Assembly (NCBI GenBank): GCA_964601935.1
Contig: CAZROP010000001.1
Coordinates: forward strand, 185,867 to 249,866
Source: an uncultured Candidatus Saccharibacteria bacterium
GTDB taxonomy: Bacteria; Patescibacteriota; Minisyncoccia; Phycocordibacterales; UBA1006
DNA length: 64,000 bases
Direction: 5' to 3'
This document shows positions 6,345 through 55,529 of this stretch, in pieces. The position numbers were made by a program, and so were the translations under genes. Below the pieces are notes generated by a model, which was given only the letters and a program-made list of their open reading frames with translations, was not told where the DNA came from and did not search any database. Every line of letters begins with the position of its first letter. The stretch's first letter is position 1.

Positions 6345-6444
6345 TGGAGAGAAGCCTATGGAAAGAATCCATATTATCTCGTATAAAAAACATGACGCAA
6401 AGCATCATGGTTTCTTTTACTACGAACTACTGATTGAATACCTA

Positions 6445-7464: not shown

Positions 7465-7562
7465 AGTACCTGTCGATTCTACCGCAGAGCAGGAAAAATC
7501 ACAAACTTATTACGGGGAAAGCACTGCTATCTATAGCAACTGAACTCTATCAATGCGTGAAT

Positions 7563-8072
7563 TTATTCAGAGACCTGCGACTCTCTATATACATTATAAG
7601 CCTCTACTAGCATCTCCCTCTTCTGGACTTCGTCAGGCCCTGCCAGAGCCTGCTGTATCATGCCCCAGACACTATGCAGCACTACTAGGGCTTCTTTTAT
7701 TTCTATAGCTAATTGTTCCTCCGTATCACCAGAAGCTATATATTGTTCAAATTCGGATATCTTTTCTTGTACGTCTTCTATAAACAACTGCATTTTTAGA
7801 GCAACGAATGCATCTTCTTTGTTATCAAATGTAGTTCTTTCACTATGTTTCGCTGTTTGAAACTGAAAGCGCATAGGATGCAGGTCACGCACATCAATCG
7901 GGCGCCAGCTATCATCCTGAAAATCCAGCCGCCATATCAAACCATCTGCATCTCCAAAGAATGCCTGTGTATCCGAAAAATACAACAATGCGACTTCTCC
8001 ATCCAGTAAACTCTCACATAAAGATGTGTCAAAAGGCACTATTTCGTTACTACCAGGTGTAGATTCGGTCAT
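7563..8072 (-). CDS. hypothetical protein
   Basis: 169-aa acidic soluble ORF with clean boundaries. Confidence 0.4.
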   Translation of the reverse strand: MTESTPGSNEIVPFDTSLCESLLDGEVALLYFSDTQAFFGDADGLIWRLDFQDDSWRPIDVRDLHPMRFQFQTAKHSERTTFDNKEDAFVALKMQLFIEDVQEKISEFEQYIASGDTEEQLAIEIKEALVVLHSVWGMIQQALAGPDEVQKREMLVEAYNVYRESQVSE

Positions 8073-8170
8073 AGCTAGTATTATATAGGTTACTACAGAC
8101 TCGGCAAATCAGGATAGATATACCAGGGCTGGTATATTGGTAGATTTTAGCAGCTTTGGCAGATAATTAC

Positions 8171-8923
8171 CTATCCGAGACTGTATAGAAATCCATTTCT
8201 ACTCCAAAACCACAGTGGCGGATGCATTTCGATAGGTGCAATTCCGCTGCCTTCGAGTAGTACTCGCCAGCGTTCCGATATCTGCTCTTTCGTCAACGTC
8301 AATGATTCGTCTTTTGTGATAACACCCAGAATAACTGAGCACTGTGTAATATGAGTATCGGGTGCGATATCAATATACTCTCTACTACTCAGCTGAATCT
8401 GACCATACTCACCTAATATGAACGACCAGTAGTTAAATATTTTCGGACCTGATAGATAGGGAAATTTCTTCTTGTGTGTACGCTGTACTATGTCTTTTAA
8501 TTTCAAGAAATCATACTCTGTTGCACGTATTAAATTAGTGAAGCTACCCCATTCCTGTTGTATAGTTGTCGCAATGGTCTTCCAGGTAGTAACATGTTTA
8601 TTTGGTTGTAATGCTAACTTGTATTTCATTAATTTCTGACGTAATTCATCTTCAGGCATGTGAGCAACAGAATGAACATCAAAAACATCTCGCGTCGCAC
8701 TATCATTCCATGTTTTGTGTGCAGCTTCCCATAATTTATAACTATCCCGTTGATAGTTCAGTGCCATAGGCAGCGTAAAATACGCCAGCCTCATTCCCTG
8801 CTCTGTGTCAGAGAATCCAGGATTGCTGTCTTCGGGCATTTTTGTCTGACCGAGCTGCCCCGCGCGGAACGCCTCCAATAGCAGCCGACAGTTTTGGTGT
8901 AATGTATTAGTCATAACGATCAT
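8171..8923 (-). CDS. hypothetical protein, weak resemblance to HhH-type DNA glycosylases
   Basis: 250 aa; the segment FPYLSGPKIFNYW resembles an HhH Gly-Pro-Lys turn. Assignment is weak. Confidence 0.3.
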   Translation of the reverse strand: MIVMTNTLHQNCRLLLEAFRAGQLGQTKMPEDSNPGFSDTEQGMRLAYFTLPMALNYQRDSYKLWEAAHKTWNDSATRDVFDVHSVAHMPEDELRQKLMKYKLALQPNKHVTTWKTIATTIQQEWGSFTNLIRATEYDFLKLKDIVQRTHKKKFPYLSGPKIFNYWSFILGEYGQIQLSSREYIDIAPDTHITQCSVILGVITKDESLTLTKEQISERWRVLLEGSGIAPIEMHPPLWFWSRNGFLYSLG

Positions 8924-8971
8924 CTATAGGATAGCACGCTAGAAACAGTTACATAAATCTGCTGGTTGCGC

Positions 8972-9637
8972 TCATATATTCTGCATAATAGCTTGGATAT
9001 CCTCGATCGCTTTTGGCATATTACGCTGCCCCATACCGACAGGATAATAGGTTGGGTGCACAGCAAATACTTTCCCATCAATGGTCAGGTCATATCTGCG
9101 ACATCTAGATTCCGAAACCTTGATCGGCTGCTGTAACAAATTTGATGCAACCTGATTACCAAACGCAATGATTACCCGGGGAGAAACCAATGCAATCTCT
9201 GCCAGGGTCACGTCTCTGCTCTCTCGAAATACCAGATCGGAAACATGGCGAGCATCACACTGAGTACAGCGTGCTAAGTTCGTTAGATAGTATTTATTCT
9301 TTGCGACCTGCTGATACAGCTGCTGCGCAAATTCGGGAGTCCATTCATGTGTTTTGAGTGCTTGAATATATGCATACGTTTTATCGTCAATGACACCTAA
9401 TCGATACATCAATTTCCAGGTATTTTTCAATCCTATCCATGGCGCACGCAATCCAGTCCACTCCTTTATTACAGTGATATTCCTCGCCGTCGGATTCATG
9501 AACAAAAACATCACGTCTGGATTGCGAATACAGCCCGTCCCATATAGTGCGGTATAATTACTATCGCCATATTTTGTCTGCAAGGAGTCTATTTCTGGCT
9601 TGAGACTATCTAATTGAAGCATACTTCGATTATACAC
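8972..9637 (-). CDS. uracil-DNA glycosylase superfamily-like protein
   Basis: 221 aa; motifs VMFLFMNPTARN, IIAFGNQVA, and VHPTYYPVG resemble UDG-superfamily motifs A and B. Confidence 0.4.
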   Translation of the reverse strand: MYNRSMLQLDSLKPEIDSLQTKYGDSNYTALYGTGCIRNPDVMFLFMNPTARNITVIKEWTGLRAPWIGLKNTWKLMYRLGVIDDKTYAYIQALKTHEWTPEFAQQLYQQVAKNKYYLTNLARCTQCDARHVSDLVFRESRDVTLAEIALVSPRVIIAFGNQVASNLLQQPIKVSESRCRRYDLTIDGKVFAVHPTYYPVGMGQRNMPKAIEDIQAIMQNI

Positions 9638-9694
9638 TAGTGACTACGTAGCTTACCCCCCTTCCCCTCCTCTATGTGATTAGGTCTTACTTTA

Positions 9695-10240
9695 CTACTT
9701 GTTTGTATCACTGATTCGGCCCAGTAGCAACTCAAGCGAATCGTTTGGCGTAAATATGATCGGATTCTCGCTCTCGGTGGGACGCTCAAACTTGTGAGTA
9801 TCAGTCTCCATCCATTCTGACGGCACATCGTGGCGAGTTTTGTTGAGTTTATTTTGCAATTTCCGCTCCCTTAACACCTCGAATGGAGTATCTACAAAAA
9901 TAAGTACCGTGTTCACTCCAGCCTTTGACGCAATACTCCTGAGCTCGTTACGTTGCTCCACATAAAAGCAATTATCATCAATAATGACCGAATCTCCTAA
10001 TAGGAGTTTATTTTTTACACCCTGAATCAGGAGTTGCCACAATGCACCTCTCCAAATAGCATCATCATCTTCATCAGGTGTAGATTCAAGTTCTAATGAT
10101 TGTTCGATCGCAAAATATATATCATCTCGACCAATTATTGGTATATTTAGAGTCTCAGCTAATTTCTTTGAAAGAGTCGATTTTCCAGAAAATGACTCTC
10201 CACAGAGAATAATCAATTTTTGTTTACTTGTAGAGTTCAT
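9695..10240 (-). CDS. P-loop NTPase / AAA_33-type putative kinase
   Basis: 181 aa with Walker A GESFSGKST. Confidence 0.6.
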   Translation of the reverse strand: MNSTSKQKLIILCGESFSGKSTLSKKLAETLNIPIIGRDDIYFAIEQSLELESTPDEDDDAIWRGALWQLLIQGVKNKLLLGDSVIIDDNCFYVEQRNELRSIASKAGVNTVLIFVDTPFEVLRERKLQNKLNKTRHDVPSEWMETDTHKFERPTESENPIIFTPNDSLELLLGRISDTNK

Positions 10241-20727: not shown

Positions 20728-23700
20728 TTACGCTGCTTCTTGTAATTCTTCTCTTCCTTGCTCATTCAATGGAACAACTTTTGTACCGCTAGTTCTTTTA
20801 CGAGATAAAAAGTCTTTGAAATCTCTACCATTTTTTATTCGATCGACATGACTCTTTATCTGTTCATTAGTAGTACTCATTGATTCTACAACTTCTGGAG
20901 TAGTACTATTCTCCCGACCACGAGCTCTTCTTGCCAGCTGAGCTTGTATTTGCTCTGTAGTAGGACTTTTATTTTCTCTTGGTTTAGCATTTTCTATCCT
21001 TCTGCTCTGCCAAGAAGCTGTGGCTCTTTTTAGTGCAGGAGTAACGAATGCAGTACTTTGAAGCTGACCCTCCTCTTCTTTAGGTTTATCAAACACGCCA
21101 TCCCAGAAACTATCCCATCTATGTTCCTGTGTAAGGGTTTGAGATTCTGCGACGGGGGCTACATTTGCTTCTATTACACTTGATGTAGCAGAGGTTTGAT
21201 TGGTTTCTTCACCTGCAATAGGGGTATCAAACCCAAAGAATGAGGAATCATAACTCTGATTAGTAGTATTATTAATCGTCTGAGAGTTATTATCTTCAGC
21301 TTGCAGCCTATTACCTTGATTAGTATTATTAAGCTGTTCTCTATTATTTTCACCATCTCGAGCAAGAGAACGATCTCTCTGTAGAGTCCGCCTCTCATCA
21401 TTATCAGGCGTACGGCCTGGTTCTTGGTCTGGGTGTTTTTCCTTGTAGTCATCTGTCGGCCCCATAAATCGCTGGGCATGTATAGGTTGCACATGTATAT
21501 CAGTATCATATACATTAGGTGCTTCGTAGTCTATATCAAGGATTGGTTGATTCGAAAAGTTCTCACCCTGTATACGAGCCAACGAGCGTACATTGTACGG
21601 CATAGTATCTGAACCATCTCCCTCTAATACTTCTACTGCCAGTATCTGCCCTTTCAATTCGAATTTTCCATCTTCAGTCACATGAAGGAATTCAGAGTTA
21701 ACACCAGTATTCGGAATAAATGCCTTACCATTTTTATCAAATTCTATAAATACAGCACCTTTGTTACCGATACTATCACTTGTTACTAATTTTTCGCTTC
21801 CCTCGTAGAGCATTAACTTTATTTTTCCTTTTCCTACCATTTCTTTTATTTGATCTCCTGTCAGTTTATTACTACCAAATGTTGACTCATCGTTAAACAT
21901 GTCTGCAATCGACATTTCGTATCCCTTCACATTTCCATCAGCATCCCATATTACACCTGATCCATTTGGTCCTCCCCATTTTAGATCCAATTCATTGCGC
22001 GCAAATTCTTTGGTATCATAATCATAATAATTGTCCATTCGAACAGATTTGAATTCAGCTGGACGCTCTGCTCCATTATAAGAATCAAAATATGAACCTG
22101 GGACAGGTGTCTCTGTTATCGTGAATCCTTTCCCTGCTAATGCTTTCTGTATATCGTCCTGACCTATTACACCATCACCTGCGGCATCTGGTATAGAAAT
22201 GTTTACGCCATTCGGTCCTGTTAGTGCAACACCATTTCCCTGCTGCTCCAGACAGAACCCATCCGGTAGACGCACATCTGCAGATACCTTGCCATCTATA
22301 CCCTGGATGATAGAACTGTGAGACATGGTAGTCGTGCCTCCGCCTGTTATCAGATTTTTTAACTGCATCAGGAGTGTTGCCTTTTTCTCGGAATCTCGTT
22401 CTGTGAACCAACTTTCTACCAAACCCATCGTAGAATCATCTATCAATGCCCATATTTCAGCAGTTGCAATACCGAATGCAAATGATAGTGCAAATACGGC
22501 TGAACCTGTTATCGCTGCCTCTTTTGCGAGCATTGATTTCACCCCCCTCTTATGTTTAGAAATACTTTCTATCAACTCCTTTCTAGTTTTTGAAATCTCA
22601 GGATTTTCACGTGCATTTTGTAGAGCATTATTAAATTCATTACCAAGTTCTTTTTTTAATCCTGCACGTAGACGTGCCATTAGAACAGCAATTTCACGAT
22701 GTTGTGCTTCTACCTGACCCGGATCATACTGAATTAATTCTACCTTTTTAATATTACCTGACTTTATAAGATCTTCATAACGGATCAATAATTCCAGTTT
22801 TGATTCTAGGGGATACTCCTGACCAGCACGTAATTCGCTGATAATAGATTGTGCTGGTTGCAAATCCATGCTAAATTTTTCAAACTTTGCAGCAACTTTA
22901 TCATTACTATAGGTTTCTCCTGCAGCAGTGTTCTGGTAATACTGCTGTGCCTCGGTGGTTCTACGATTATACTGCGCTGATCCTGCGAATGCTCCACCTA
23001 TAACTGAACCTACGACTGGCACAGCTAATGTTGCTTCTGCTGCCTTTTTCGAAACTATTTTTGCGACTGATGCCGCAGCACCCGCGAGGACAGCCAGCGT
23101 TGTTCCATTAAACACTCTTGTGACTTTTATTTTTTCACACCATCTACCAAATCTACCTTTGTATTTCGATGATAACGAATGTTCTGCAATCGCTATTTTC
23201 AGAGAAATATGAAGTTCGTTTATATATCTAGCTTTCTCATCAGCGCTCAAACCCTCAAATAGAGACTTGACTTCTCTGCAGACCACAAAGAAATTATGAG
23301 CAGTTATTGTTTCCTGACCACCTCCTTGGATTCTGCGTAGTGTATCGAGCTGCTGATTTACTAACTCCTGATACGTAATTGTTTGACCTGTGGGTACTTC
23401 TGATCTGAAACTATCGATATCTTCCTGAGATTTCAGAAATTCTATCAAAAATGTTCTGAGATTTTCTGATACCTGTGCCTGTCGAGTTTCATTATTATCT
23501 ACATTATAGACCTTTTCACCTGCGCTCAAGATACTATCGTCACCACTAATCACACGATCAGCTGCTGATTCGTACAGTGCACGTGTTCTTGCCTCGCCAT
23601 CATCCTCACCCAAAAACACATTACGCTGTTCTGCTGTTTCCCGTAGTGCAGCAACACGGTGTTTTGCCTGTCGATACTCATGAACTATTGCATTTTTAGC

Positions 23701-23871
23701 TCTTGTGAACTGTCGTGCGATCCAGTTCTTTTTTTCTGCTGACTGTTCCTGAGCCCCTAATCGTTCTGCTGCCAATTTACGAGCATACTGTCGTTGAATA
23801 TCAGTCACATCAGCAATACCTACATTAACTTCTGTAGGTATTTCTTCAAAACTTGTTTCTCTGAGCAACAT
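20728..23871 (-). CDS. large surface/membrane protein: N-terminal coiled-coil domain, two TM helices, large C-terminal extracytoplasmic domain with Q/N/T-rich tail
   Basis: 1047 aa with Gly/Ala-rich TMs (LAVPVVGSVIGGAFAGSAQY; AITGSAVFALSFAFGIATAEIW); no known catalytic motifs; paralogous in architecture to 52969..55047. Confidence 0.5.
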   Translation of the reverse strand: MLLRETSFEEIPTEVNVGIADVTDIQRQYARKLAAERLGAQEQSAEKKNWIARQFTRAKNAIVHEYRQAKHRVAALRETAEQRNVFLGEDDGEARTRALYESAADRVISGDDSILSAGEKVYNVDNNETRQAQVSENLRTFLIEFLKSQEDIDSFRSEVPTGQTITYQELVNQQLDTLRRIQGGGQETITAHNFFVVCREVKSLFEGLSADEKARYINELHISLKIAIAEHSLSSKYKGRFGRWCEKIKVTRVFNGTTLAVLAGAAASVAKIVSKKAAEATLAVPVVGSVIGGAFAGSAQYNRRTTEAQQYYQNTAAGETYSNDKVAAKFEKFSMDLQPAQSIISELRAGQEYPLESKLELLIRYEDLIKSGNIKKVELIQYDPGQVEAQHREIAVLMARLRAGLKKELGNEFNNALQNARENPEISKTRKELIESISKHKRGVKSMLAKEAAITGSAVFALSFAFGIATAEIWALIDDSTMGLVESWFTERDSEKKATLLMQLKNLITGGGTTTMSHSSIIQGIDGKVSADVRLPDGFCLEQQGNGVALTGPNGVNISIPDAAGDGVIGQDDIQKALAGKGFTITETPVPGSYFDSYNGAERPAEFKSVRMDNYYDYDTKEFARNELDLKWGGPNGSGVIWDADGNVKGYEMSIADMFNDESTFGSNKLTGDQIKEMVGKGKIKLMLYEGSEKLVTSDSIGNKGAVFIEFDKNGKAFIPNTGVNSEFLHVTEDGKFELKGQILAVEVLEGDGSDTMPYNVRSLARIQGENFSNQPILDIDYEAPNVYDTDIHVQPIHAQRFMGPTDDYKEKHPDQEPGRTPDNDERRTLQRDRSLARDGENNREQLNNTNQGNRLQAEDNNSQTINNTTNQSYDSSFFGFDTPIAGEETNQTSATSSVIEANVAPVAESQTLTQEHRWDSFWDGVFDKPKEEEGQLQSTAFVTPALKRATASWQSRRIENAKPRENKSPTTEQIQAQLARRARGRENSTTPEVVESMSTTNEQIKSHVDRIKNGRDFKDFLSRKRTSGTKVVPLNEQGREELQEAA

Positions 23872-23885
23872 ACCGATATAGAAAT

Positions 23886-24233
23886 CTATTGAGACACCTC
23901 TGTCGGGGACACAGGTTCTTGCGACGATGAATTATCTGGGATGTAGAGTCTTCTGAACTCTAACATTTCTTTCGTAAGAAGCTCTGCCATATTAGGAACA
24001 TGTGCTGCGCAGAATTCCTGAATTTCAGCATCTGATGCTGTTTCTGTCATAGCATCGAATGTATCTAGTTTGTCTTTCGGTAATGCTGTAAAAATAGCAA
24101 CCTGAATACGCGTTTCCAATTGCTGCATAAAATCAGCTTTCATTTCGGCATAAATTTCCGGCTCTAGATCGCCAAAATTTTTGTCGTGCAGTATCTCGTC
24201 TATAAAATTTCCTAAAATTTCATCAGTGTTCAT
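23886..24233 (-). CDS. small acidic protein, paralog of 55096..55419 (possible dedicated chaperone/partner)
   Basis: 115 aa, highly acidic, 15 nt upstream of the 1047-aa gene; the C-terminal half aligns with the 107-aa ORF (LD.FDAM....DAEI.EF....P..AE...EM). Confidence 0.5.
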   Translation of the reverse strand: MNTDEILGNFIDEILHDKNFGDLEPEIYAEMKADFMQQLETRIQVAIFTALPKDKLDTFDAMTETASDAEIQEFCAAHVPNMAELLTKEMLEFRRLYIPDNSSSQEPVSPTEVSQ

Positions 24234-24419
24234 AAGTACTATAAGGTGGAATTATACAATAACACCATCAGTATACACTGAACATAGATTATTGTATTGT
24301 GTATAACATTATAGTATTTATCGAAGAAACATTTGAAGATTGTGAATATAACTAAGTATAAAAGTATAAAAAACAAAACACCCTTACGGGTGTTTTGTTT
24401 TAGGTATTCTCAGAGAGAA

Positions 24420-24641
24420 TTACTGAGCAGGTACAACAACGTCTGTTGATACTTCAACAGGCTGTACTGCTGGCGCAGGCTGGATGTCTGTAACTGGTGC
24501 TCCCTCTACTGGAACTTCTTCTACAGCCTTGTTCTTCTTTCCGGTTACGATGATAATGATGATTATCACGATTACTGCAACAGCGATAAGGCTAGTTACG
24601 ATTGTATTTCCTTTGATCATAATAAATATAGATTCTTTCAA
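24420..24641 (-). CDS. small single-pass membrane protein
   Basis: 73 aa with one strongly hydrophobic helix (IAVAVIVIIIIIIVTG) followed by a Pro/Val-rich tail. Confidence 0.4.
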   Translation of the reverse strand: MKESIFIMIKGNTIVTSLIAVAVIVIIIIIIVTGKKNKAVEEVPVEGAPVTDIQPAPAVQPVEVSTDVVVPAQ

Positions 24642-27754: not shown

Positions 27755-28108
27755 TTATTGATTAGGGTTATCGGTTGTTGTAGTAATCGGGTTTGAAATC
27801 TGCTGCTGTATTAAGGAATTGATATCGATAGGATTACCGTTTTCATCAGTAACACTCGCTCCAGTTGGGAGGAATGACGGCTGCTCGGTAACAGTTTCTG
27901 TACCTACGAGTGTTCGCAAACCCTTCAAACCTGCCAAAAATCCTGCATCTACCAGGCTAATAAAATATGAAAACCCGATAACGCACAGAATAACCAACGC
28001 CGTGAATGCAGCTACTTTACGTGGACGAGGCCAGGTTACATTACGTAATTCTGCATATACCTCGCGGAAAAACGTGAATTTAGGTAGTGCCATAGATAGT
28101 TTTGCCAT
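27755..28108 (-). CDS. secE: preprotein translocase subunit SecE
   Basis: REVYAELRNVTWPRPRKV followed by a single TM; conserved secE-nusG adjacency. Confidence 0.75.
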   Translation of the reverse strand: MAKLSMALPKFTFFREVYAELRNVTWPRPRKVAAFTALVILCVIGFSYFISLVDAGFLAGLKGLRTLVGTETVTEQPSFLPTGASVTDENGNPIDINSLIQQQISNPITTTTDNPNQ

Positions 28109-28376
28109 ATACGCGTTATAATACTATAGATAGCGCATTTTTCAAGTAGTCTCACTATTTTAAACCGACATTTTCAATGTTATACACTTTTTTAAGGGTT
28201 TTCCCCAGGTATATACACAGAAATGTCGTTTATTAGTCTTTTATTACCCCCGTCTATTCAAAATAAAGACACTTTCGCAAGAGAAATAGGTAGTTATGTT
28301 TATTGTATAAGATGGGTAGTTCTCGAAATTTCTATGAACTTATTACGTTTCAACCTGAATGCTACAATAGTAGTCT

Positions 28377-28868
28377 ATGAAAGTTAGAGCATTTATATGT
28401 GCAATTTATAACCAGGAAAGCGAAAATGAGCTCTCTAGGTTTATTCTAAATCTAGAGAAAAATGGATATTCTGTACTAAATACTTGGGATAACAACGTAT
28501 GGGAAGCTCCAAAAGAGTATATTCAAGAGACAGGGGATACGCTGGAAAACAGAATTTTAATTATAAATAGCTTGTCTCTATCTGAAATTAGTAAATTAAA
28601 GCTATTTCTAATGGAACAGGAAGTAGAGTTTACAAAAAATAACAGAAGAACTCTCAATCTCAACCCTGGATACTTGTCTCCGAAAGGTATGTTCTTGATA
28701 ACACATAAAGACAACCCATATCGCAAAAGAGAAGAAATTGCGAATAATCTCTGGCAAGAAAAACAGTATGCCTACAACGGTTCAACATTTGAGATACTTG
28801 ATAATACTTTTTCTGAATACAGGGATAACGAAAGAATTGCTAAATTTACTAAATTATTTGACGAATAG
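28377..28868 (+). CDS. hypothetical protein
   Basis: 163-aa soluble ORF with no confident family assignment. Confidence 0.4.
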   Translation: MKVRAFICAIYNQESENELSRFILNLEKNGYSVLNTWDNNVWEAPKEYIQETGDTLENRILIINSLSLSEISKLKLFLMEQEVEFTKNNRRTLNLNPGYLSPKGMFLITHKDNPYRKREEIANNLWQEKQYAYNGSTFEILDNTFSEYRDNERIAKFTKLFDE

Positions 28869-28953
28869 AGCTCATTACTGCACACTGATATTGCTACATA
28901 GTGAAAAACATCCATAGTTCGGGAGTTATCGTGGAAAACATGGTGCTTAAACT

Positions 28954-29226
28954 CTATCTAATAATCACATCATTGATACTAAACTCGTGGGGATTACTGT
29001 TAATATACTGAACCAATCCATCCATACTGCAACGCGTTTGGAGTACCGTTTGTTCCGCAAAGGTTAAGTGTTGCAGTAATACCACCGTCTGCCCTATAAC
29101 AACCTGACGATTATTCAACGACATGCCTGTGCTATGACCTATATATTCCAAAGCTAGATCCTTTAAAACCTGGTCTCGCGACACAGTTTGTGCAAACATA
29201 TTCACCATTTCACTGATATGCTTCAT
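28954..29226 (-). CDS. hypothetical protein
   Basis: 90-aa ORF tightly packed upstream of dnaN. Confidence 0.35.
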   Translation of the reverse strand: MKHISEMVNMFAQTVSRDQVLKDLALEYIGHSTGMSLNNRQVVIGQTVVLLQHLTFAEQTVLQTRCSMDGLVQYINSNPHEFSINDVIIR

Positions 29227-29247
29227 ATACTATTAGATTTTTTCTTA

Positions 29248-30354
29248 TTATCGGCCTACCGGCATTAATAATGCTCTAAAATAGATATCATCTGGCGAGG
29301 TAACCATGATAGGGCGCATTGGATCTATACAGGAAAATACCACCCTATCCACAGACAGTACGTTCATTATTTTCATAATATTATCAGCATTTACGCGTAT
29401 CATGAGGTTTTCCTCGATATCTCCGACTATCAACGCTCTAAATGATGATTTACCCCGTCCACGGTCGTTATAATCCGTTTCGCAGACACACATACTCTCG
29501 TCTGTATTGGGCTTTAGCATTATTTTAGGGAACTGAGGGTCGGCGAATGGCTGTACTGTACGTAGTGCAGTACGTACCTCGTCACGTGTGGTCTCTATGG
29601 TAATAGGAAATTCTTTGGGAATGATTTGTTCATACTGAGGATACGAACCTGTGATAGTGCGTATTATCAATGTGTAATTTCCTGACTGAAACTGACAACT
29701 GCCTTCTGTCGCCACACAATCGACCTTTCCACTATTTCCTAGGCAATGTAGCACATGAGGCGTGTATTTATTAGGTAACAACACTGTCCCCTCCTCTAGC
29801 TCACAAGGTACTCGAGTCTCAGCCAGGTAAAAACTATCTGTCGCAGCAGCTACTAAAAACCCTTGTTTTATTGACAAAAACACCGATGCAAGCTCCGGTC
29901 GTATATCAGAAACCGCACAGGCGAATGACACCCGTTTGATAACATCAGATAGTAATGTAGACGATCCTGTATACCAAGTATCTCCAACGAGTTCAGCGAA
30001 CTCCTGAACAGTTTCATGGGGATAGGTTTTAATGTCCGCCTCCGAATCCCCTGAAACGACATGTACCACACCTTCTACTATCTCCAATGTCACTTCGCCG
30101 AGGTTTTTGATAGTACTCAGAAACCCTATCAGGACATTCTGATCGATAGCGACACGTCCTGCATCATCAACAGATACAAACGGTATGATGACGCGTCCCG
30201 ATACCCCTAGACCATGCGCCAGCACCTCTACGTGATCTGTGGCAACAGTGAGACACGTGTACGCTAGGATAGGTTGCGCTGGATGGCGTGTTGGTAATTT
30301 TGATACTGATTGTAGCGCATCCAGTAGAGTTTTCCCCTGCAAGGTCAGTTTCAT
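29248..30354 (-). CDS. dnaN: DNA polymerase III beta sliding clamp
   Basis: 368 aa; N-terminus MKLTLQGKTLLDALQSVSKLPTRHPAQPILAYTCLTV matches the DnaN pattern; length and three-domain periodicity fit. Confidence 0.65.
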   Translation of the reverse strand: MKLTLQGKTLLDALQSVSKLPTRHPAQPILAYTCLTVATDHVEVLAHGLGVSGRVIIPFVSVDDAGRVAIDQNVLIGFLSTIKNLGEVTLEIVEGVVHVVSGDSEADIKTYPHETVQEFAELVGDTWYTGSSTLLSDVIKRVSFACAVSDIRPELASVFLSIKQGFLVAAATDSFYLAETRVPCELEEGTVLLPNKYTPHVLHCLGNSGKVDCVATEGSCQFQSGNYTLIIRTITGSYPQYEQIIPKEFPITIETTRDEVRTALRTVQPFADPQFPKIMLKPNTDESMCVCETDYNDRGRGKSSFRALIVGDIEENLMIRVNADNIMKIMNVLSVDRVVFSCIDPMRPIMVTSPDDIYFRALLMPVGR

Positions 30355-30590
30355 AGTAGGTATAGTTAACCATGAAAAAGAAAAAGTTATTATTATTAGG
30401 GGTGTGGGTTATGGGGATTGAGCACTACACCCTTATCAGTATAGAGATAATAGAGATGCTTCATACTGGATAACTATGGGTAGATTGCTCAATACTCGGG
30501 GAAAACCTCACTATATACCGATACTATCAGGTTGTTGTGGGTAACTGATAGGGTATATCCCCAGGAAGAGTACGGGTTATCACCAGGGTG

Positions 30591-33305
30591 CTAGGGTGCG
30601 CACAGGGTGTTCGCTCTATCACGAGTTAGGCTATCCCAAATACCAGGAGGCTCCTCTAGTCCGCGCGGCTGCATAATAGTGGTGTAGTTCTGTAGTTGGA
30701 AATCTTTTACTGCTTCTTCGGTTTTGGATTCAAAAGTGCCGGTGACTTCTATACTATAGCCTTGTTGTACTAGAAAGAGTTGTACTCGCTGGATCTCTGA
30801 AGTGTCAGTGCTATCACGGGTGAGTTCAGTGATAAATGGTGCCGAGCATGCCGATACGGACTGTTCGCCCAGGGCGACCTGTTCTATTGTCGATACGCGG
30901 GGTTCTGTATCGGGGATATCCAATTCCTGTAGCCCGGTACGCACTCGTACATCATTGAGGACTTTATTTGCTTTACCTCGACTGAATTTGAAGAAGTTGC
31001 CAGTAGCGTGACCTACTCCAGCCTGGATCAGAATATCGCTGTCGTTGTTCTGATAGGTGTTCACGGCCTGGGTAGTTTCAGGTCCGAAGTATCCATTCAC
31101 CTCGAGATCAGTGCCAAGATAGTAGTTGAGGAATTCTTGAATACGTTTTACTTCTTCAGGATAAGTTGGTCCGAGGTTCTGGTTCATGTCTTTGAGAAAT
31201 AGATACTCTTCCAGAGATTGTGGTAGCGGTTTGTTTGTGTTGAATGGGGATGTCTCTATCGTTTCTTTTGTTATAGAAGGCTGATTTTTTGATACCTCTT
31301 TGATACTTTCTTTTGTAGTTGTCGTTTTTATCGTGGTGTTCGTAGTCAGAGAAGGTACAGTAGTTGGTGTTTTTTCTGCTGTTGAACTTACCGCGGTGGT
31401 ACTTGATTTTGAAAGAGGATTGTAAGTATCTACGGAAGTAGCCAAAGCCAATCGAATCGAACCTCTGTCGAGAGCGGTACCTTGTGATAATGAATCGGAC
31501 AGAGTTCTGCTGTCTGTTATGAGTACACCGTCCATTGATCCGAGGATTGGTAGATTAAATGCATCAGAACTTTCCGGTATAAATCCTGTACTACCTGATG
31601 CTAATAATAGTAGGAGTGTAGCAATAGTCGCCTTTTTGACATGTTTTTTTGCTACCTGATGACGTACTTTTTTGTGAATCTGTTTATGTACCGGTATCGA
31701 TTTGTTTTCTGGTTTGCTACTGCTGAATAGTGCTTGTATGAGAGCTATTACAATAGTACTACCTAGTACTATTGCTCCTATGGATGCAAGGAGGAAGAGT
31801 AATTGGTTGATAGAGATATCAGTATACATATAGTAGGTCACTATTCGTGTATACATAACGTATCCACCGAGTGCGATACACCCTATCAGACCTATAAATA
31901 TAGTGAATAATAGGAAATTACTTGTAGGTTTTGTAGTATGTACCGATGTTGTGATTCGTTTCATACGCATAACGGTTGGTGTCCGCGTATCTTTGTGCTT
32001 CATAGATGCATACTGCCCCCATAATGTGCCCAGCATATAGAATAACCCTCCTATCATCAATGTGAATCCTATATCAGATAAAATATCTCCTGTTAGTGAC
32101 CAGGTATAGGGCAGCTTTTCGATTACATGTGCAGAAGAAGCACTGTACGCCTGAACATTTTGTACAAAGGGTACCACTAATGCTACAACAAATAAAACAT
32201 AGTTTGCGATATGGAGAGCCGCTGTTTCAGGGGATCGTGTGCTTCCTTTGTGTGCTTTATGATGGAGTAGTGTAGCAATACAGAGCACTGCCAAGAATCC
32301 TAGTGTTATAGGTAATAACTCATAAGTTTCTATAAATGTTCGTAGAGAGGTTTTCCAGTCTACGTTTTGCAGCGAACGTGTTTGTATAGCGTTTTCTTCT
32401 TCTGGTGTTGTTATGACTTTGGTGCCGAGTGCCAGACGTAATGGCTCTGTACTCTGTGTGTAATAATGATCGCCTGCTGGTGTGATAATAGTGGTAATGG
32501 ATGTTTCAGTATTAGGTAATAGAGATGCTAATACATCAGGAGTCAGTGATGCCATACGAAGCCTGTGCCCAGATAGGTTACTCGATTCAGAAATATATTG
32601 AACGGTTTCTCTATTTGCAGTAAAAGGAGTAATTTCTGATAGTGAAGGTAGCTCACCATTCTGTAGTGCATACGCGGAAGCAGGTATAAATACTAATGTA
32701 CATACTGCAACAGCAACTAATTTATACCAAGAGTTGGATAACTGCATTAATACTTGTGCAGTATTTTTGAATAGAGAGAAATCTTGTGAATACTTTAGGG
32801 GTCTACGTCTGTCAGGTTCTCCATCATCAAGACACAAGCCATCCTGTGGGCTCGATGAGCTGGAAACACATACTGCACGCTCTCCTGAATAGGAAGATGG
32901 TGTTGCAGATGTATTTCCGGTAGAAGCTATAAGGTATGGAGACTGGATATATGTTGATGTAGATACTGTGCGACCACTGCGTGTTGCAGTTTTTGGTGCT
33001 GTTGCATAAACATGACTGCGTTCCTGTCGGATACGACTAGAAAGAGTACGTGGAGATTTCGATGTGATAGTTGTACGAGAATCCATCAGAGAACTTTGTG
33101 TTTGCGCACGCTGCGATACTGCGCGCTTGAACTCACCAGAAATATCTTTCTTTTGTGCAGTAACCGTTGTGGCGCGATTCCATACCTGTACAATCGGTGA
33201 CGGAGTTGCAGCGTGTGTGAACTTCTGTGTCTTTGATCGTGCACGAGAAGTACGTACGGACGACTGGGTGTTCATATGAACATGAGAGAGAGTTGATGTG
33301 CTCAT
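30591..33305 (-). CDS. large polytopic membrane protein with two C-terminal peptidoglycan-binding (PG_binding_1-like) domains and S/T-rich N-terminus
   Basis: 904 aa; at least 8 TM helices in the middle; two C-terminal repeats (EFLNYYLGTDLEVNGYFGPETTQAVNTYQ and LFLVQQGYSIEVTGTFESKTEEAVKDFQ) fit the PG-binding motif. Confidence 0.5.
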   Translation of the reverse strand: MSTSTLSHVHMNTQSSVRTSRARSKTQKFTHAATPSPIVQVWNRATTVTAQKKDISGEFKRAVSQRAQTQSSLMDSRTTITSKSPRTLSSRIRQERSHVYATAPKTATRSGRTVSTSTYIQSPYLIASTGNTSATPSSYSGERAVCVSSSSSPQDGLCLDDGEPDRRRPLKYSQDFSLFKNTAQVLMQLSNSWYKLVAVAVCTLVFIPASAYALQNGELPSLSEITPFTANRETVQYISESSNLSGHRLRMASLTPDVLASLLPNTETSITTIITPAGDHYYTQSTEPLRLALGTKVITTPEEENAIQTRSLQNVDWKTSLRTFIETYELLPITLGFLAVLCIATLLHHKAHKGSTRSPETAALHIANYVLFVVALVVPFVQNVQAYSASSAHVIEKLPYTWSLTGDILSDIGFTLMIGGLFYMLGTLWGQYASMKHKDTRTPTVMRMKRITTSVHTTKPTSNFLLFTIFIGLIGCIALGGYVMYTRIVTYYMYTDISINQLLFLLASIGAIVLGSTIVIALIQALFSSSKPENKSIPVHKQIHKKVRHQVAKKHVKKATIATLLLLLASGSTGFIPESSDAFNLPILGSMDGVLITDSRTLSDSLSQGTALDRGSIRLALATSVDTYNPLSKSSTTAVSSTAEKTPTTVPSLTTNTTIKTTTTKESIKEVSKNQPSITKETIETSPFNTNKPLPQSLEEYLFLKDMNQNLGPTYPEEVKRIQEFLNYYLGTDLEVNGYFGPETTQAVNTYQNNDSDILIQAGVGHATGNFFKFSRGKANKVLNDVRVRTGLQELDIPDTEPRVSTIEQVALGEQSVSACSAPFITELTRDSTDTSEIQRVQLFLVQQGYSIEVTGTFESKTEEAVKDFQLQNYTTIMQPRGLEEPPGIWDSLTRDRANTLCAP

Positions 33306-50732: not shown

Positions 50733-52802
50733 ATGAGTGAACGCACGCCCGGAGAAGAAATCCTAGAAAACGCCGAGAATACTCCAGAAAGATTAATAAA
50801 TGCTCATATATTGAACGATATAGAGTTACAGTATGCATTACAGTTATTCCCTGTAGAAACTCTAGAATCTGTGCAAGAGAAAAGTCACGAAAAGATAGTA
50901 GATGAGCGAGTAACAATGCTGAACCGTTCGTGCATGTATGACGAGGTCAAGCCAGGAGAGGAGGGTATGCATCGACCAGAGCGTGCATATACTCCATTTT
51001 CGAAACTACGGTTCATAGCACCTCCTACTGAAGAGGTTGCAAATGAACTGCGATCACTGGGGGTGGTTCATGTGAAACAGTCTCTCGAGGCAACGAGACA
51101 GGCCCAAGATCTAGCACAATTTACCGAAATGGTCGAATGGTACGAAACACAAGAGCAGGCAAAACAGGAATGTTTAGAAGTTCTTCGTTCTTTACAAGAG
51201 AGCGCACAAGATGATTTACATGAGCTGGCTTTGCTCTTTCAGAAGATAGAGACTTCTTCTTCGGAGGCTGGTCACATGAATTACGAGCACGCGCAGAAAT
51301 GGGCGTACCAACTACTGATGGGAGGGCCTCTCACGAACAGTGTACAGTCGAGCGGAGGAGGACTGCGCGATACCTTCGAGGCATACATTTCTAATGTAGA
51401 GAACCTAAGGCAGCCGGCATACTACACCGATTTGTTGGTTGAAATACAAAATCACCAACGTGCTATAGAAATACTGAAGAGTTTGCCAGCGGCTACAGAC
51501 CCAGGATTGCAGGAGAAGTATAGAATCTGGCGGCAGATGAATACTCTTTTCAGAGGAGATGTAGAGGATAAGGTCTATACGTTCATGACCGAACAGGTAG
51601 GATATAATCAGACAAAACAGGGTATCCACATCCACAATCGTGTACCCAAAAGCTATCAACCTACACGTGGTCAGTATTCTCCTAAATACGGGTACAATGA
51701 TGCAAAGAATAAGCAACAAGAACTAATGCCTCGGGTGGAGCTTGCTCTGGAGAGCGCAACTCGATTCGTCGATACGACAGTCGCTCGTGCGCAGATGGAG
51801 TACGAAGTACTGCATCTGCCCGCGACAGAAACAAAATACGTTTCACCTGATGACGCGGCGAAGTATCTGAAACACGAGAAAGACAAGCGAGTAATAGAAG
51901 CACGAAAAGCAGCTGAGTTATTAGGTCGTAGACCAGAGACGTTTGCGCGGACTGTGGTTGATGCGGGGAACTTTACAGGAGAAGTCAGCTTTACTCTGAG
52001 GCCAAGAGATATGTTACCTGATATACATGCTGAGATACAAGAGCTAGAGAGACAAATCGTGGATTTGGGGATCGAGATAGGTAAATTGACGAAATCGGCT
52101 GATTCCATGAAAGATTCATTGGAAAAGGGTAGGGCGTATGATAGTTCGTCTAAACTTTATAAATTGGTTGTGTCACCTCCTATTGTTAACACAACCTGGA
52201 CTGAGCATGGCAACAAGCTTGATGATATAAAAAACTTAACATCAAAAAAGACAGACATAGAGCAAAATCTCGAGGTATTGCAAGCAGAATTAGAAACACA
52301 ATCACGACACCAATCTAATATATCGTTTGACTGGGAAAATGAGTGTATAAATATGATTACTAGAGGTGAATACCTGGGTTATGATATGAAACAGGGCGAA
52401 GTATCGGATATAGGGGCAGATTTTGATGTGGTGGCGTTCAAAAGATCACTATATAATCGTCTGTCTGGTGGTAGTAAGTCTATTTCAGAATTAGAACTGC
52501 GTAATTTGCAGAATGATATTGTTACATTCCTAGGCTTGGTATCCCGATGGGGGTTGTCGCCTGCAGAACAAACAGCATTAGACCATTATGATTCTGTGTT
52601 GCAGCGAGTCAGTAAAGGCGAATCGCGTACTCCAGAATGGTTACAGGGCGTGCCATTTGATGCGAAACAGGTGTACGAACATGCACTCGATGTTGTAATG
52701 CCTGCACAGGAAGCAGCTTTGGGTGTTGTAGATGGAAATGTATCTGTTGAAGTAGTGGCTGACGCGTATATGCGGTTGTACGGCGATAATAATGAAAAGT
52801 AA
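50733..52802 (+). CDS. large soluble coiled-coil hypothetical protein (first gene of + strand module)
   Basis: 689 aa, acidic and helical, no TM. Confidence 0.45.
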   Translation: MSERTPGEEILENAENTPERLINAHILNDIELQYALQLFPVETLESVQEKSHEKIVDERVTMLNRSCMYDEVKPGEEGMHRPERAYTPFSKLRFIAPPTEEVANELRSLGVVHVKQSLEATRQAQDLAQFTEMVEWYETQEQAKQECLEVLRSLQESAQDDLHELALLFQKIETSSSEAGHMNYEHAQKWAYQLLMGGPLTNSVQSSGGGLRDTFEAYISNVENLRQPAYYTDLLVEIQNHQRAIEILKSLPAATDPGLQEKYRIWRQMNTLFRGDVEDKVYTFMTEQVGYNQTKQGIHIHNRVPKSYQPTRGQYSPKYGYNDAKNKQQELMPRVELALESATRFVDTTVARAQMEYEVLHLPATETKYVSPDDAAKYLKHEKDKRVIEARKAAELLGRRPETFARTVVDAGNFTGEVSFTLRPRDMLPDIHAEIQELERQIVDLGIEIGKLTKSADSMKDSLEKGRAYDSSSKLYKLVVSPPIVNTTWTEHGNKLDDIKNLTSKKTDIEQNLEVLQAELETQSRHQSNISFDWENECINMITRGEYLGYDMKQGEVSDIGADFDVVAFKRSLYNRLSGGSKSISELELRNLQNDIVTFLGLVSRWGLSPAEQTALDHYDSVLQRVSKGESRTPEWLQGVPFDAKQVYEHALDVVMPAQEAALGVVDGNVSVEVVADAYMRLYGDNNEK

Positions 52803-52968
52803 GTTTGCAGTCTTTAGCAAGACAGAACAAAACCCGCTGCCAAGGGCAGCGGGTTTTGTTCTACGTGAAACCTGTATCGGTGTCATAGTACAGTGGATAA
52901 TGCCTGAAATTACAAGCAATTGATTGATATACTGGGTTAGACATCGGTATGCGCCGATCTTGTAGTGT

Positions 52969-55047
52969 ATGACATCACCAGAAAATACTGTTCCACAAAG
53001 AGATCCGATTCCAGGTGTAGGACATCCGGACGGGCTTTTGCCTGAGGAACAGGATTGGTGGAACGCACTACAGCGAGAAAAAGCGTCTCTAGCGCAAAAT
53101 GAGGGTATGGTATTGTCGCCTGTGATAGCACAATCTTCGCGTAGTTGGGATTCAGTTCAGATCCCGAAAGGTCGTAGAGAAGGCGGGCGATCTGCATCTA
53201 CTCTCGAAACATTGCGAACCAAAGGGGTTCATTCAGGCTCTGCGCTGGAACAAAAGATCTTAAATTCAGTTAGCGCTCCTACGAGTCCTATTACCTGGGA
53301 AGCAGTTGTTGCGACAAGAGCTCGATTAACTCCTCGATTAGAACAGGCTTTGGCAGCAGCAGATCCGCACCTGGCGTATGTATACGAGAGGTCACTGTCT
53401 CGTTCAGCCGCGAATATTACCTCGAACGATACATCAGCACGAACTGCAAAAATCATACCAATAGGCCAACCTCTAGGGGTAAGTTTGCGTGAGGCGGCGC
53501 TTGTAGATGACCAGGATGGTATCGAGATGCCTCAGATGCAGATTGCTTCGGTAGCAGCATCTGCCGATGTACCCGATGTAGAAACAGTCGGCGAGCCTGT
53601 TGCACCAGCGGCAGTAGCACCAGAGGTACATTCTGATGAGCCTATTTCTCTGCAGGAATTGGTTGATAGGGTAAACAGAAATGTATCAACTGTACAGGAG
53701 TCTCTGGATCTTGCAATAGAGCCTGTTGCACCAGCAATAGAAGAAGACCATAACTGGGCAGAACAGGTGCATCTATCAACTGAACGGTATTCTAGTACAC
53801 TAGAATCTGCGTACAATGAAGCATATTTGAATCTTCATAGAGGGGCGCATTGCAGTTGGTTATCGAATTCTACACATAGAGAAACATTACTCAATCAGGA
53901 GTGTCAGATAGCGCGTCGTGAATTGGTACTGGCTCTCGTGAATCAACGCCGGCAGCAGAATAACGGCGTACTCAGTCGTGCTGACCTGATTCAGATAGAA
54001 CAGAGCGTGGTACAGCAAGAGCGTATCACATTGGATACTCTTGGACAGCAGTATGCGCAACACGCAGACATGCGCATGGTTCGTAATGTTCCAGAATTGG
54101 CAAATATTGCGCGTGCTCGCGGTGCAGCAGTGATGGAACGAGGCAGACAAGGTGTCACACGTGTAACAGGTATGTTGTCGAGATTATGGACTAGAACTGC
54201 AGGGCAGAGTGATACCGTACAGAGAGCACAAGAATCCATGACGGCACACAGTCGTCGCGTGCGCGGTTGGGTGGATAGGCGATTGGGATCAGAGCGAGTT
54301 GCACAGATGCAGCATGTAGCGGTGCGTATTGCTGTACCTACTGTATTTACCATTGCTACGGGTGGAGCACTGCTGCCGGTGATAGCAGGTGCAACAGTGG
54401 CTACGGCTACGGGTGCTGGTATTGATGCCGGATATCGTGCAGTCACTAGGTCGCAGAATCGTGCCGACCAGAGCATACCCATTGCTCCTGAAAATGTAGA
54501 CGCAATGTTAGTTGATGCGCAACAGGAAGCGGCAATTAGGAATCGGGAGCGACGTATTGCGCGCTGGGTGTCTACCATTACATCCTCTCTCGTGGGAATA
54601 GTAACAGGGCATTGGACAGCAGATGCGATGCAGGCTCACACTAATACGCCAACATCTGGGCCTGCACCGAAACCAACGCAGCCTATTATCGAAAAACCAC
54701 CCATCCCATTTATAGAACACACTGTTGCTATTCAAAATGGGTCAGGCGAAGGGTTTACTCAGGCGGTTAATCGCTTATTATCAGTGACGCCAACAGATCA
54801 AGTGCCAGCATTGATTACTGACTTCGCACGAGTACATAATGTACCTATCGTTAACGGTCATTATCAGATGACTCCAGAACAGGCGCGAGCGTTTGCCGAA
54901 CAGGTACGTGCAATCGATACATTCGGTCGTTCAATCATTATGCAGCCGGGTGATACAGTAGGATTCGATGCGGAAGGACAGCTGGTACATACACATGCAG
55001 GAGTGAGCCGCGCAGTAACAGGCGCATTACGCGGGAAATGGATGTAG
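52969..55047 (+). CDS. large two-TM membrane protein, architectural paralog of 20728..23871
   Basis: 692 aa; ~450-aa cytoplasmic N-domain; Gly/Ala-rich TM pair (IAVPTVFTIATGGALLPVIAGATVATATGAGIDAGY; VSTITSSLVGIVTGHW); ~150-aa C-terminal domain. Confidence 0.5.
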   Translation: MTSPENTVPQRDPIPGVGHPDGLLPEEQDWWNALQREKASLAQNEGMVLSPVIAQSSRSWDSVQIPKGRREGGRSASTLETLRTKGVHSGSALEQKILNSVSAPTSPITWEAVVATRARLTPRLEQALAAADPHLAYVYERSLSRSAANITSNDTSARTAKIIPIGQPLGVSLREAALVDDQDGIEMPQMQIASVAASADVPDVETVGEPVAPAAVAPEVHSDEPISLQELVDRVNRNVSTVQESLDLAIEPVAPAIEEDHNWAEQVHLSTERYSSTLESAYNEAYLNLHRGAHCSWLSNSTHRETLLNQECQIARRELVLALVNQRRQQNNGVLSRADLIQIEQSVVQQERITLDTLGQQYAQHADMRMVRNVPELANIARARGAAVMERGRQGVTRVTGMLSRLWTRTAGQSDTVQRAQESMTAHSRRVRGWVDRRLGSERVAQMQHVAVRIAVPTVFTIATGGALLPVIAGATVATATGAGIDAGYRAVTRSQNRADQSIPIAPENVDAMLVDAQQEAAIRNRERRIARWVSTITSSLVGIVTGHWTADAMQAHTNTPTSGPAPKPTQPIIEKPPIPFIEHTVAIQNGSGEGFTQAVNRLLSVTPTDQVPALITDFARVHNVPIVNGHYQMTPEQARAFAEQVRAIDTFGRSIIMQPGDTVGFDAEGQLVHTHAGVSRAVTGALRGKWM

Positions 55048-55095: not shown

Positions 55096-55419
55096 ATGAC
55101 AAATTTGCATGACATTACTAGTGCGTTCGCGCAGGTGTACGGATTCGATCCTGTCGATACCAGTGATAACGGTGCAGGATTGACAGGACAGCTGCTGGTG
55201 ACGTTGATGGAGCGTTTAGTAGCACGATCATACAGCTATCTAGGTGTTGACGATCAACGCATACTGGATGATATGCTGGACGCTGATGCAGAACCGGATG
55301 CTGTGATTGGATTTTTGTCGCAGCGTATTCCTGTATTTGCACAAGTAGTAATGGAGATTATCACAGAGATGAAGAACTCTATAGATGAAGTAGAGAAGAT
55401 TGCAGAGAGTGTAGTATAA
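55096..55419 (+). CDS. small acidic protein, paralog of 23886..24233
   Basis: 107 aa, pI about 4, aligns with the 115-aa ORF next to the other large membrane protein. Confidence 0.5.
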   Translation: MTNLHDITSAFAQVYGFDPVDTSDNGAGLTGQLLVTLMERLVARSYSYLGVDDQRILDDMLDADAEPDAVIGFLSQRIPVFAQVVMEIITEMKNSIDEVEKIAESVV

Positions 55420-55487: not shown

Positions 55488-55529
55488 GGTAAAAAATAAC
55501 GCCTATCTGGAAAAATTCCAGATAGGCGG
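55488..55529 (-). terminator. intrinsic terminator after cmk
   Basis: 11-bp perfect stem cgcctatctgg/ccagataggcg followed on the minus strand by TTATTTTTT. Confidence 0.6.

Follow-up and report, generated by a model that had tools for sequence, protein, structure and literature searches.

A DUF5663 gene and its adjacent giant gene form a conserved two-gene unit in Patescibacteria

The window, a 64,000-nucleotide stretch of DNA from an uncultured Candidatus Saccharibacteria bacterium (contig CAZROP010000001.1), encodes two small acidic proteins, each beside a large protein. Module 1, composed of the DUF5663 protein small1 and its large partner large1, exemplifies an ancient operon of two genes found widely in Patescibacteria; we call large1 and its homologues giants. 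Module 2 comprises small2 and the unrelated-looking large2, with uncertain membership of a third gene encoding a 689-residue protein. The genome carries a standard copy of the DUF5663-giant pair together with a diverged paralogue of the small protein that has a different large neighbour. A preliminary description had seen here two paralogous modules of a lineage-specific system, duplicated within 30 kb. Its observations are confirmed in part and its interpretation is partly supported, and the actual finding is different and broader. The five open reading frames (ORFs) that it placed in the two modules are all present in an ORF check of the window (Table 1), with each small gene lying beside and on the same strand as its large neighbour, separated by 14 nucleotides in module 1 and 48 nucleotides in module 2.

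The DUF5663-giant pair was followed through 22 informative contexts, comprising the window, locus L002, 19 further loci and a JGI contig (L105); the 19 loci derive from a survey of one genome per GTDB species, seeded with a 5-sequence DUF5663 subset. In 22 of 22, the DUF5663 gene adjoins a large1 homologue on the same strand within 46 nucleotides, the gap measuring 5-46 nucleotides in the 19 GTDB loci and the JGI contig. The L002 giant, a protein of 1151 residues encoded 17 nucleotides after the DUF5663 gene, aligns with large1 over ~690 columns (E 5e-15). BLASTP comparison of large1 with 15 partners elsewhere gives E values of 1e-8 to 1e-23 over ~700-880 alignment columns, and a family hidden Markov model (HMM) built from 16 sequences, large1 included, matches large1 at E 8.7e-257. 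Giants span 840-1691 residues, with a shared core of ~800 residues followed by variable tails. The notion that a small acidic protein and a giant form a real, conserved functional pair thus holds for module 1, across several classes of the candidate phyla radiation (CPR).

The order is small-then-giant in 20 of the 22 contexts and giant-then-small in the remaining two, the Paceibacterota loci L014 (4535-8285) and L016 (4565-8285). There, the pair is flanked by SMC upstream and RNase R downstream, as in loci of the usual order, so the pair has been rearranged internally. Three loci encode the giant as two consecutive ORFs (L005, 840+427 residues; L012, 145+714; L018, 188+848), which could reflect frameshifts, assembly errors or genuine splits. 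The loci are labelled Saccharibacteria, Paceibacteria, Paceibacterota, Nomurabacteria, one "Bdellovibrionales" bin and several unclassified. Their flanking genes are of housekeeping type and differ by lineage (FtsH, RecG, SMC, RNase III, NusB-NUDIX, RNase R, SmpB); because the pair is kept while its flanks change, the DUF5663-giant pair itself is the conserved unit. The flanks of module 1 in the window are YifB, NusG, L11 and FMN reductase, with no mobile island. This housekeeping context, combined with a family that numbers at least 413 clusters when grouped at 50% identity, means that, against the earlier suggestion, module 1 is not specific to a lineage. Near the pair, two loci encode a VirD4/TraG-like coupling protein (TrwB_AAD_bind, TraG-D_C and DUF8128 matches; L002 2509-5010, minus strand; L008 752-3496, plus strand).

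Small1 has an isoelectric point (pI) of 4.14, with 24 Asp and Glu versus 8 Lys and Arg residues, and no signal peptide in its sequence. It matches the Pfam DUF5663 profile with 34.6 bits (E 2.9e-8), above the gathering cut-off of 23.7, with residues 14-94 covering profile positions 1-81 of 84. A full HMMER/phmmer scan of 1.84 billion representatives returned 413 small1 homologues at E<=1e-3; family members are typically 95-110 residues long, and the closest homologue, encoded at L002, shares 40% identity. Word-indexed database searches with small1, large1 and large2 returned the query itself only, and all five module proteins are singleton clusters. The AlphaFold2 (AF2) model of small1, computed from a 94-sequence alignment, reveals five helices with a predicted local distance difference test (pLDDT) score of 87.7. 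A Foldseek comparison of this model with the PDB gave nothing below E 1; CnrX, a protein of Spy/CpxP-like fold, came up repeatedly at E 3-8 with a TM-score of ~0.25. Such fold resemblances of the DUF5663 protein are hints only. Among Pfam families, the small proteins match nothing other than DUF5663, for small1, and WXG100 is not matched. No mention of DUF5663, PF18908 or the giant partner was found in the literature full texts searched; DUF5663 is a catalogued family without a described function.

An 18-sequence alignment (A4; 12 invariant columns) defines the core of the giant. A helical N-region comes first, then two hydrophobic segments rich in Gly/Ala, ~160 residues of charged helix, a third hydrophobic segment and a β-rich domain, and a P..P.V.RRPLE-like motif closes the core. 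Most members carry the motif RIWKHN..EYYRQKEI in the N-region, which is degenerate in large1. The two adjacent segments, spanning residues 256-298 of large1, form a putative hairpin. Throughout the family, a Lys/Arg-rich stretch comes before the third segment and acidic residues after it. A large1 model that AF2 built from 13 sequences agrees with this layout in its secondary structure, with helices at 23-477, strands at 519-781 and disorder at 782-944; its confidence is best in the long helical regions at residues 130-180 and 300-450. The core has no Pfam, NCBIfam, PDB-sequence or fold match, and an NCBIfam match to BlhA (E 0.057) is insignificant. Pfam detects no toxin domain in the 18 giant-family members, and a by-eye assignment of the L010 and L015 tails as glycosyltransferases has no Pfam support. 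Paceibacteria-type tails (L008, L011, L014, L016 and L020-L022; A4 columns ~1200-1500) contain a repeat of ~70 residues, ..DDLKM.NKKIQSSEGII.L.E.DFKSAYGKKRY.EL..I..G.PV.FNK.E...IGDE.E..L, which occurs twice in several members and not in large1.

Hydrophobicity was measured as 19-residue peaks on the Kyte-Doolittle (KD) scale. Peaks in the giant family lie at 1.2-1.9, with values of 1.5, 1.6 and 1.9 in large1; clear membrane proteins of the window reach 2.0-2.8, versus 1.4-1.6 for the soluble PNPase, DnaN and HisRS.

Small2, with a pI of 4.05, 19 Asp and Glu versus 6 Lys and Arg residues and no signal peptide, is as acidic as the preliminary description had it. In Pfam it has no match at E<=1 and lies below the gathering threshold. 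BLASTP finds no match between small1 and small2 even at E<=100, so this comparison taken by itself would argue against their kinship. Profiles reveal it. A custom DUF5663 profile built from 149 database homologues and run on the 479 six-frame ORFs of the window ranks small2 second (E 4.9e-4; next ORF 0.15), with residues 37-98 matching profile positions 50-110, in the C-terminal two-thirds of the profile. When the profile is rebuilt without small1, small2 scores 14.9 bits versus a maximum of 7.0 in 2000 composition-preserving shuffles, and reversed small2 scores -0.5. Alignment by hhalign pairs residues 35-96 of small1 with residues 33-95 of small2 (E 5e-5, probability 67%). In a phmmer search that set small2 against the ORFs from 21 loci, among them the module 1 region of the window, the top 16 matches are all DUF5663 genes. 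The sole near-invariant position within the aligned region is Met in small2 and Phe in the family (F93 in small1). Judged by these sequence comparisons, small2 is a true relative of DUF5663, though a very diverged one. The C-terminal alignment proposed by eye thus marks the right region and a genuine kinship, although at a strength that only profiles detect.

The large proteins of the two modules share no such relationship. BLASTP of large1 versus large2 gives a best E of 0.21, the giant-family HMM matches neither large2 nor the 689-residue protein at E<=10, and profile-sequence hhalign against the giant family returns probabilities of 0.2% and 0.1%, respectively; homology of large2 to the giant core was not detected, although its gene adjoins a DUF5663-like gene on the same strand. 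Neither protein has a homologue in the word-indexed search. Across 80 metagenome loci anchored on the CCA-adding enzyme (~50% identity, 767 kb), there is no homologue of small2, large2 or the 689-residue protein, and no DUF5663 gene. Large2 and the 689-residue protein are orphans at the sensitivity these sequence searches reached. The "paralogous modules" of the preliminary description therefore hold as distant homology of the small proteins and not for the large ones, and a recent duplication is not borne out, given dissimilar large proteins and orphan module 2 proteins.

In architecture, large1 and large2 share a long hydrophilic N-region before a hydrophobic stretch, but this region measures ~250 residues in large1 and ~450 in large2, and the part beyond the hydrophobic stretch ~570 versus 140-200 residues. 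Large2 has a single Gly/Ala/Thr-rich stretch; a later proposed segment (~residues 533-551) stays under KD 1.1, and the β-rich domain and motifs of the giant are not present. A common two-transmembrane topology had been proposed for both proteins. Hydrophobic stretches do occur in each, but with marginal KD values, three segments in large1 and one in large2. The additional 689-residue ORF, described earlier as coiled-coil, exists; its coiled-coil-type matches are weak only. Pfam, NCBIfam, PHROGs, PADLOC and PDB sequences yield no secretion, toxin or enzyme family in the module proteins, in line with the preliminary description, and phage and defence readings were set aside since PHROGs and PADLOC gave no match.

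A related locus is present in the cultured saccharibacterium Southlakia epibionticum, where SEML1_0161 (767-residue hypothetical protein) is followed after 14 nucleotides by SEML1_0162 (142 residues, weak DUF5663) and then SEML1_0163 (144 residues, strong DUF5663) (PMC10633639). TRANSIT calls from transposon sequencing (Tn-seq) at T0/T1/T2, in which GD denotes growth-defect and ES essential, are GD/ES/ES for SEML1_0161 and SEML1_0162 and NE/GD/GD for SEML1_0163 (PMC10633639). Table S2 of that study lists a Trigger-factor C-terminal domain protein among the structural matches of SEML1_0163 and assigns it to the ECOD LTXXQ family, and the annotation table lists a third PF18908 gene, whose locus was not located (PMC10633639). 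In the portion of the PMC10633639 text available, no discussion of SEML1_0161-0163 was found. The locus resembles module 2 in its large-then-small order with a diverged DUF5663 protein; it differs from the window in carrying two tandem and longer DUF5663 genes, and SEML1_0161 is likened to the large proteins by size and order only. These tables place a large-then-small arrangement with a diverged DUF5663 protein in a cultured saccharibacterium, where it matters for growth, and the DUF5663-giant operon is probably important for growth.

Our preferred reading, to which we assign a probability of roughly 45%, is that the DUF5663 protein is a dedicated cytoplasmic chaperone or adaptor and the adjacent large protein its probably envelope-associated client. 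The DUF5663 protein would act as a holdase-type chaperone or targeting adaptor for the large protein encoded next to it, binding the giant, plausibly at its weakly hydrophobic segments or its conserved N-terminal helices, and holding it soluble until insertion into or attachment to the envelope. The β-rich domain and variable tail of the giant would then be exposed. On this view, module 2 would be another pair of chaperone and client, in which the client has either been replaced or diverged past recognition. Compatible with a chaperone are the acidic small proteins that lack signal peptides, the confident helical model of small1, the weak hydrophobicity of the partner, and the Trigger-factor C-terminal domain and ECOD LTXXQ matches of SEML1_0163 (PMC10633639).

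Several observations weigh against this reading. We infer the chaperone role from no more than adjacency, size, charge and weak resemblances of fold; fold searches of our own returned nothing significant. For large1, AF2 confidence is poor (pLDDT 49), and Foldseek matches of the model are meaningless. KD peaks of the giants overlap the soluble-protein range of the window, and two family members are without any segment of KD >=1.2. Because hydrophobicity is marginal and these two members lack the segments, the topology of the giant is hypothesis only; the "two-transmembrane surface protein" of the preliminary description is likewise hypothesis, not observation, and the family has three segments. 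Residues 1094-1129 of the L002 giant (6335-9787) match a J-domain with an HPD motif at 23 bits, below the cut-off of 27.8; if real, it would argue for a cytoplasmic rather than exposed C-terminal part of the giant. The one case contrary to the pairing is locus L109, a 2-kb contig on which an atypical DUF5663-like protein of 148 residues is flanked by ORFs of 262 and 80 residues and by no giant; the atypical long DUF5663 proteins P0079, P0023, P0106 and P0135 lie on contigs of 0.6-2 kb that hold little context.

Other readings were weighed as well. Module 2 could be a full paralogue of module 1, with large2, perhaps together with the 689-residue protein, being a giant descendant of the same architecture that diverged past recognition. 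The DUF5663-like character of small2, the presence of a giant beside DUF5663 in every informative context, the suggestive Gly/Ala-rich stretch of large2 and the long hydrophilic N-region of both large proteins agree with this, as do the giant-then-small order in L014 and L016 and the large-then-DUF5663 order in Southlakia. We nevertheless consider it doubtful, as large2 is unlike the giant family by BLASTP, HMM and profile-sequence hhalign, differs greatly from large1 in domain sizes, lacks the β-rich conserved domain and motifs, has no hydrophobicity at its proposed later, or third, segment, and returned no homologues from which a profile could be made. The giant might instead be a cytoplasmic or membrane-peripheral scaffold for division, envelope or chromosome organisation, with amphipathic or re-entrant segments and the DUF5663 protein as a stoichiometric subunit or regulator. 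KD peaks within the soluble range and missing in two members, the lack of a signal peptide, long helical regions that carry the best AF2 confidence, the sub-threshold J-domain at one C terminus, housekeeping neighbours including SMC, FtsH and RNase III, and the essential or growth-defect Southlakia locus all suit a scaffold. Pointing the other way, the third segment is conserved in the family with positive residues before and acidic residues after it, as for an N-in/C-out anchor, and the following region is β-rich with Gly/Asn/Asp-rich motifs, a composition we read as typical of extracytoplasmic domains. No likeness to a known cytoskeletal or division protein was found, the BlhA match being insignificant, and a scaffold is on balance unlikely.

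Readings that involve the host are improbable. By analogy, the giant could be an effector or translocator exported to the host, for instance via a patescibacterial type IV secretion system (T4SS), with its hairpin entering the host membrane and the DUF5663 protein serving as secretion chaperone or adaptor. A moderately hydrophobic hairpin with a small acidic chaperone encoded next to it is typical of membrane-inserting type III/IV substrates, and the pair recalls that pattern. The variable, charged and disordered C-terminal tails would also suit an effector, as would the VirD4-like gene that L002 and L008 carry no more than a few kb away from the pair, although it is found in 2 of 21 loci only. 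In Southlakia, T4SS genes have been reported to be essential (PMC10633639, PMC12102498); the patescibacterial T4SS paper was found to mention no DUF family or large hypothetical protein. No T4SS gene occurs among the window ORFs scanned, and searches revealed neither a secretion signal nor a known chaperone family; the case is wholly one of analogy. A broader version, held at similarly long odds, would make DUF5663 proteins patescibacteria-specific export chaperones and the giants host-interface proteins whose weakly hydrophobic hairpins stay out of the membrane of the producing cell and are inserted or anchored at the host envelope, forming a phylum-wide, growth-critical component of the epibiotic contact or feeding apparatus; module 2 would be a second, fast-evolving pair, possibly tuned to host range. 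If so, the giants would have no relative among known secretion substrates. Least credible, and very improbable indeed, is a pairing of polymorphic toxin and immunity protein, in which a conserved N-terminal delivery region precedes a variable C-terminal toxin and a small neutraliser is encoded alongside. The conserved N-terminal core of ~800 residues, the variable tails and the small adjacent gene recall such systems, but an immunity gene would be expected downstream and variable in step with the tail, whereas the DUF5663 gene is conserved and usually upstream. The tails are mostly low-complexity with no Pfam toxin domain, PADLOC gives no match, the context is housekeeping, and the Southlakia Tn-seq phenotype includes the large gene itself, which is unexpected for a toxin.

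At the level of transcription, the terminator-like hairpin upstream of small1 sets module 1 apart as its own transcription unit, and we count the 14-nucleotide spacer, this upstream terminator and the promoter-like site as operon signals of module 1. Both promoter-like sites are consensus matches only. The gene order is small, large in module 1 and large, small in module 2, and the gap between the 689-residue ORF and large2 is 166 nucleotides. The hairpin beyond small2 was called as a terminator on the minus strand; being palindromic, it may terminate both ways. Between the YifB-like gene and small1 lies a 73-residue ORF (24420-24641, minus strand) with one very hydrophobic transmembrane segment (KD 3.55), and the hairpin that follows it (24401-24370) is the strongest terminator-like one of the region.

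Table 1. Coordinates in the window of the two modules, their subregions and nearby transcription signals
Feature	Coordinates	Strand	Details
small1	23886..24233	-	115 aa, acidic, all-helical, member of Pfam DUF5663 (PF18908)
small1 segment aligning with small2	23946..24131	-	aa 35-96, via DUF5663 profile
large1	20728..23871	-	1047 aa; starts 14 nt past small1 stop codon
Conserved core of large1	21442..23844	-	aa ~10-810
Two adjacent Gly/Ala-rich segments of large1	22978..23106	-	aa 256-274 (KD 1.46) and 280-298 (KD 1.56)
Third hydrophobic segment of large1	22441..22497	-	aa 459-477, KD 1.92
β-rich conserved domain of large1	21529..22317	-	aa 519-781; NEL..WGG.NGTG, HMT.DGS, VPID.NGN (VPID.NGN..IDP), GRFAE
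Variable low-complexity/disordered C-terminal tail of large1	20731..21441	-	aa 811-1047; differs among members in length and sequence
Sigma-70-like promoter match	24308..24337	-	TTCAAA, 18 nt, TATAAT; 10/12; ~75 nt 5' of small1
Terminator-like hairpin	24370..24401	-	14 pairs and T-run; ends the upstream 73-aa transmembrane ORF
689-aa orphan protein	50733..52802	+	weak coiled-coil-type matches only
Promoter-like match before large2	52904..52933	+	9/12, with TG extension
large2	52969..55047	+	692-aa orphan
Single 32-residue Gly/Ala/Thr-rich stretch of large2	54328..54423	+	aa 454-485, peak KD 1.9
small2	55096..55419	+	107 aa, acidic, very diverged DUF5663-like; below Pfam threshold
13-pair hairpin	55500..55528	.	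between convergent small2 and cytidylate kinase genes

The window as a whole is chromosomal housekeeping DNA, encoding YifB, NusG, L11, FMN reductase, the CCA-adding enzyme, cytidylate kinase, DnaN, PNPase and HisRS. The sign of the GC skew flips near 30 kb, at the cumulative minimum, with dnaN at 29248-30354, and the replication origin probably lies in the region 28000-30400; each module is transcribed in the direction of replication on its arm. Beside dnaN, a 904-residue protein (30591-33305, minus strand) combines several hydrophobic segments (KD 2.2-2.6) with C-terminal PG_binding_1 and PG_binding_3 matches and looks like a large envelope protein. A 742-residue protein (61210-63438, minus strand) has ~10 strong transmembrane segments and no Pfam match. 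Just downstream of the L11 gene (17067-19008, minus strand), overlapping ORFs of 286 and 384 residues have no Pfam match, with hydrophobic segments in the 384-residue ORF. The window also contains a XerC/D-type tyrosine recombinase gene (39012-39992, plus strand) and a DUF559-family gene (56877-57302, plus strand) with a second, sub-threshold Pfam match to REase_MTES_1575.

A large part of bacterial diversity belongs to the Patescibacteria, in which most genes that are conserved and apparently essential lack an assigned function. Here, a bare Pfam DUF becomes a defined two-gene unit that is kept in at least three CPR classes despite changing neighbours and has no detectable relative among characterised systems. 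A related locus is essential or growth-defective in Southlakia, the one saccharibacterium with genome-wide Tn-seq, and the small protein plus its giant partner offer a concrete target for work in Southlakia or Nanosynbacter. Should the giant be a surface or host-contact protein, the unit speaks directly to the means by which epibionts attach to hosts and exploit them; should it be a cytoplasmic scaffold, the unit speaks to the organisation of CPR cells. As the second, diverged module suggests, one small protein family can be re-used with more than one kind of large partner.

Comparison with known systems gave no assignment of the pair to the families that it recalls. For WXG100 and type VII secretion, neither small protein matches and no FtsK/SpoIIIE-type family appears among the Pfam matches of the scanned neighbours. 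Like polymorphic toxins, the giant has a conserved N-terminal region and variable C-terminal tails; unlike them, it has no toxin domain, and its DUF5663 partner is conserved rather than cognate to the tail, so the pair is not assigned to this class. Helical, ATP-independent chaperones or sensors of the Spy/CpxP (LTXXQ) and CnrX types and the Trigger-factor C-terminal domain are brought to mind by the Table S2 assignment of SEML1_0163 and the recurrent CnrX match of the small1 model. Spy and CpxP are periplasmic, whereas DUF5663 proteins have no signal peptide and no Pfam LTXXQ match.

Further parallels are the chaperone-client pairs of secretion systems, exemplified by the type III class II chaperone/translocator pairs IpgC-IpaB and SycD-YopB and by the type IV pair VirE1-VirE2. 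CesT/SycE, TPR class II, VirE1 and IcmS/W chaperones gave no Pfam or NCBIfam match and no significant fold match, so the DUF5663 protein is not assigned to any of them. The window ORFs scanned include no type III system, linked secretion ATPase or secretion genes. DUF5663 differs from these pairs in having no sequence or fold match to chaperone families, in its housekeeping context and in its phylum-wide conservation. What it shares with them is the layout, a small acidic helical protein encoded beside a large protein with a putative, moderately hydrophobic hairpin and long helices.

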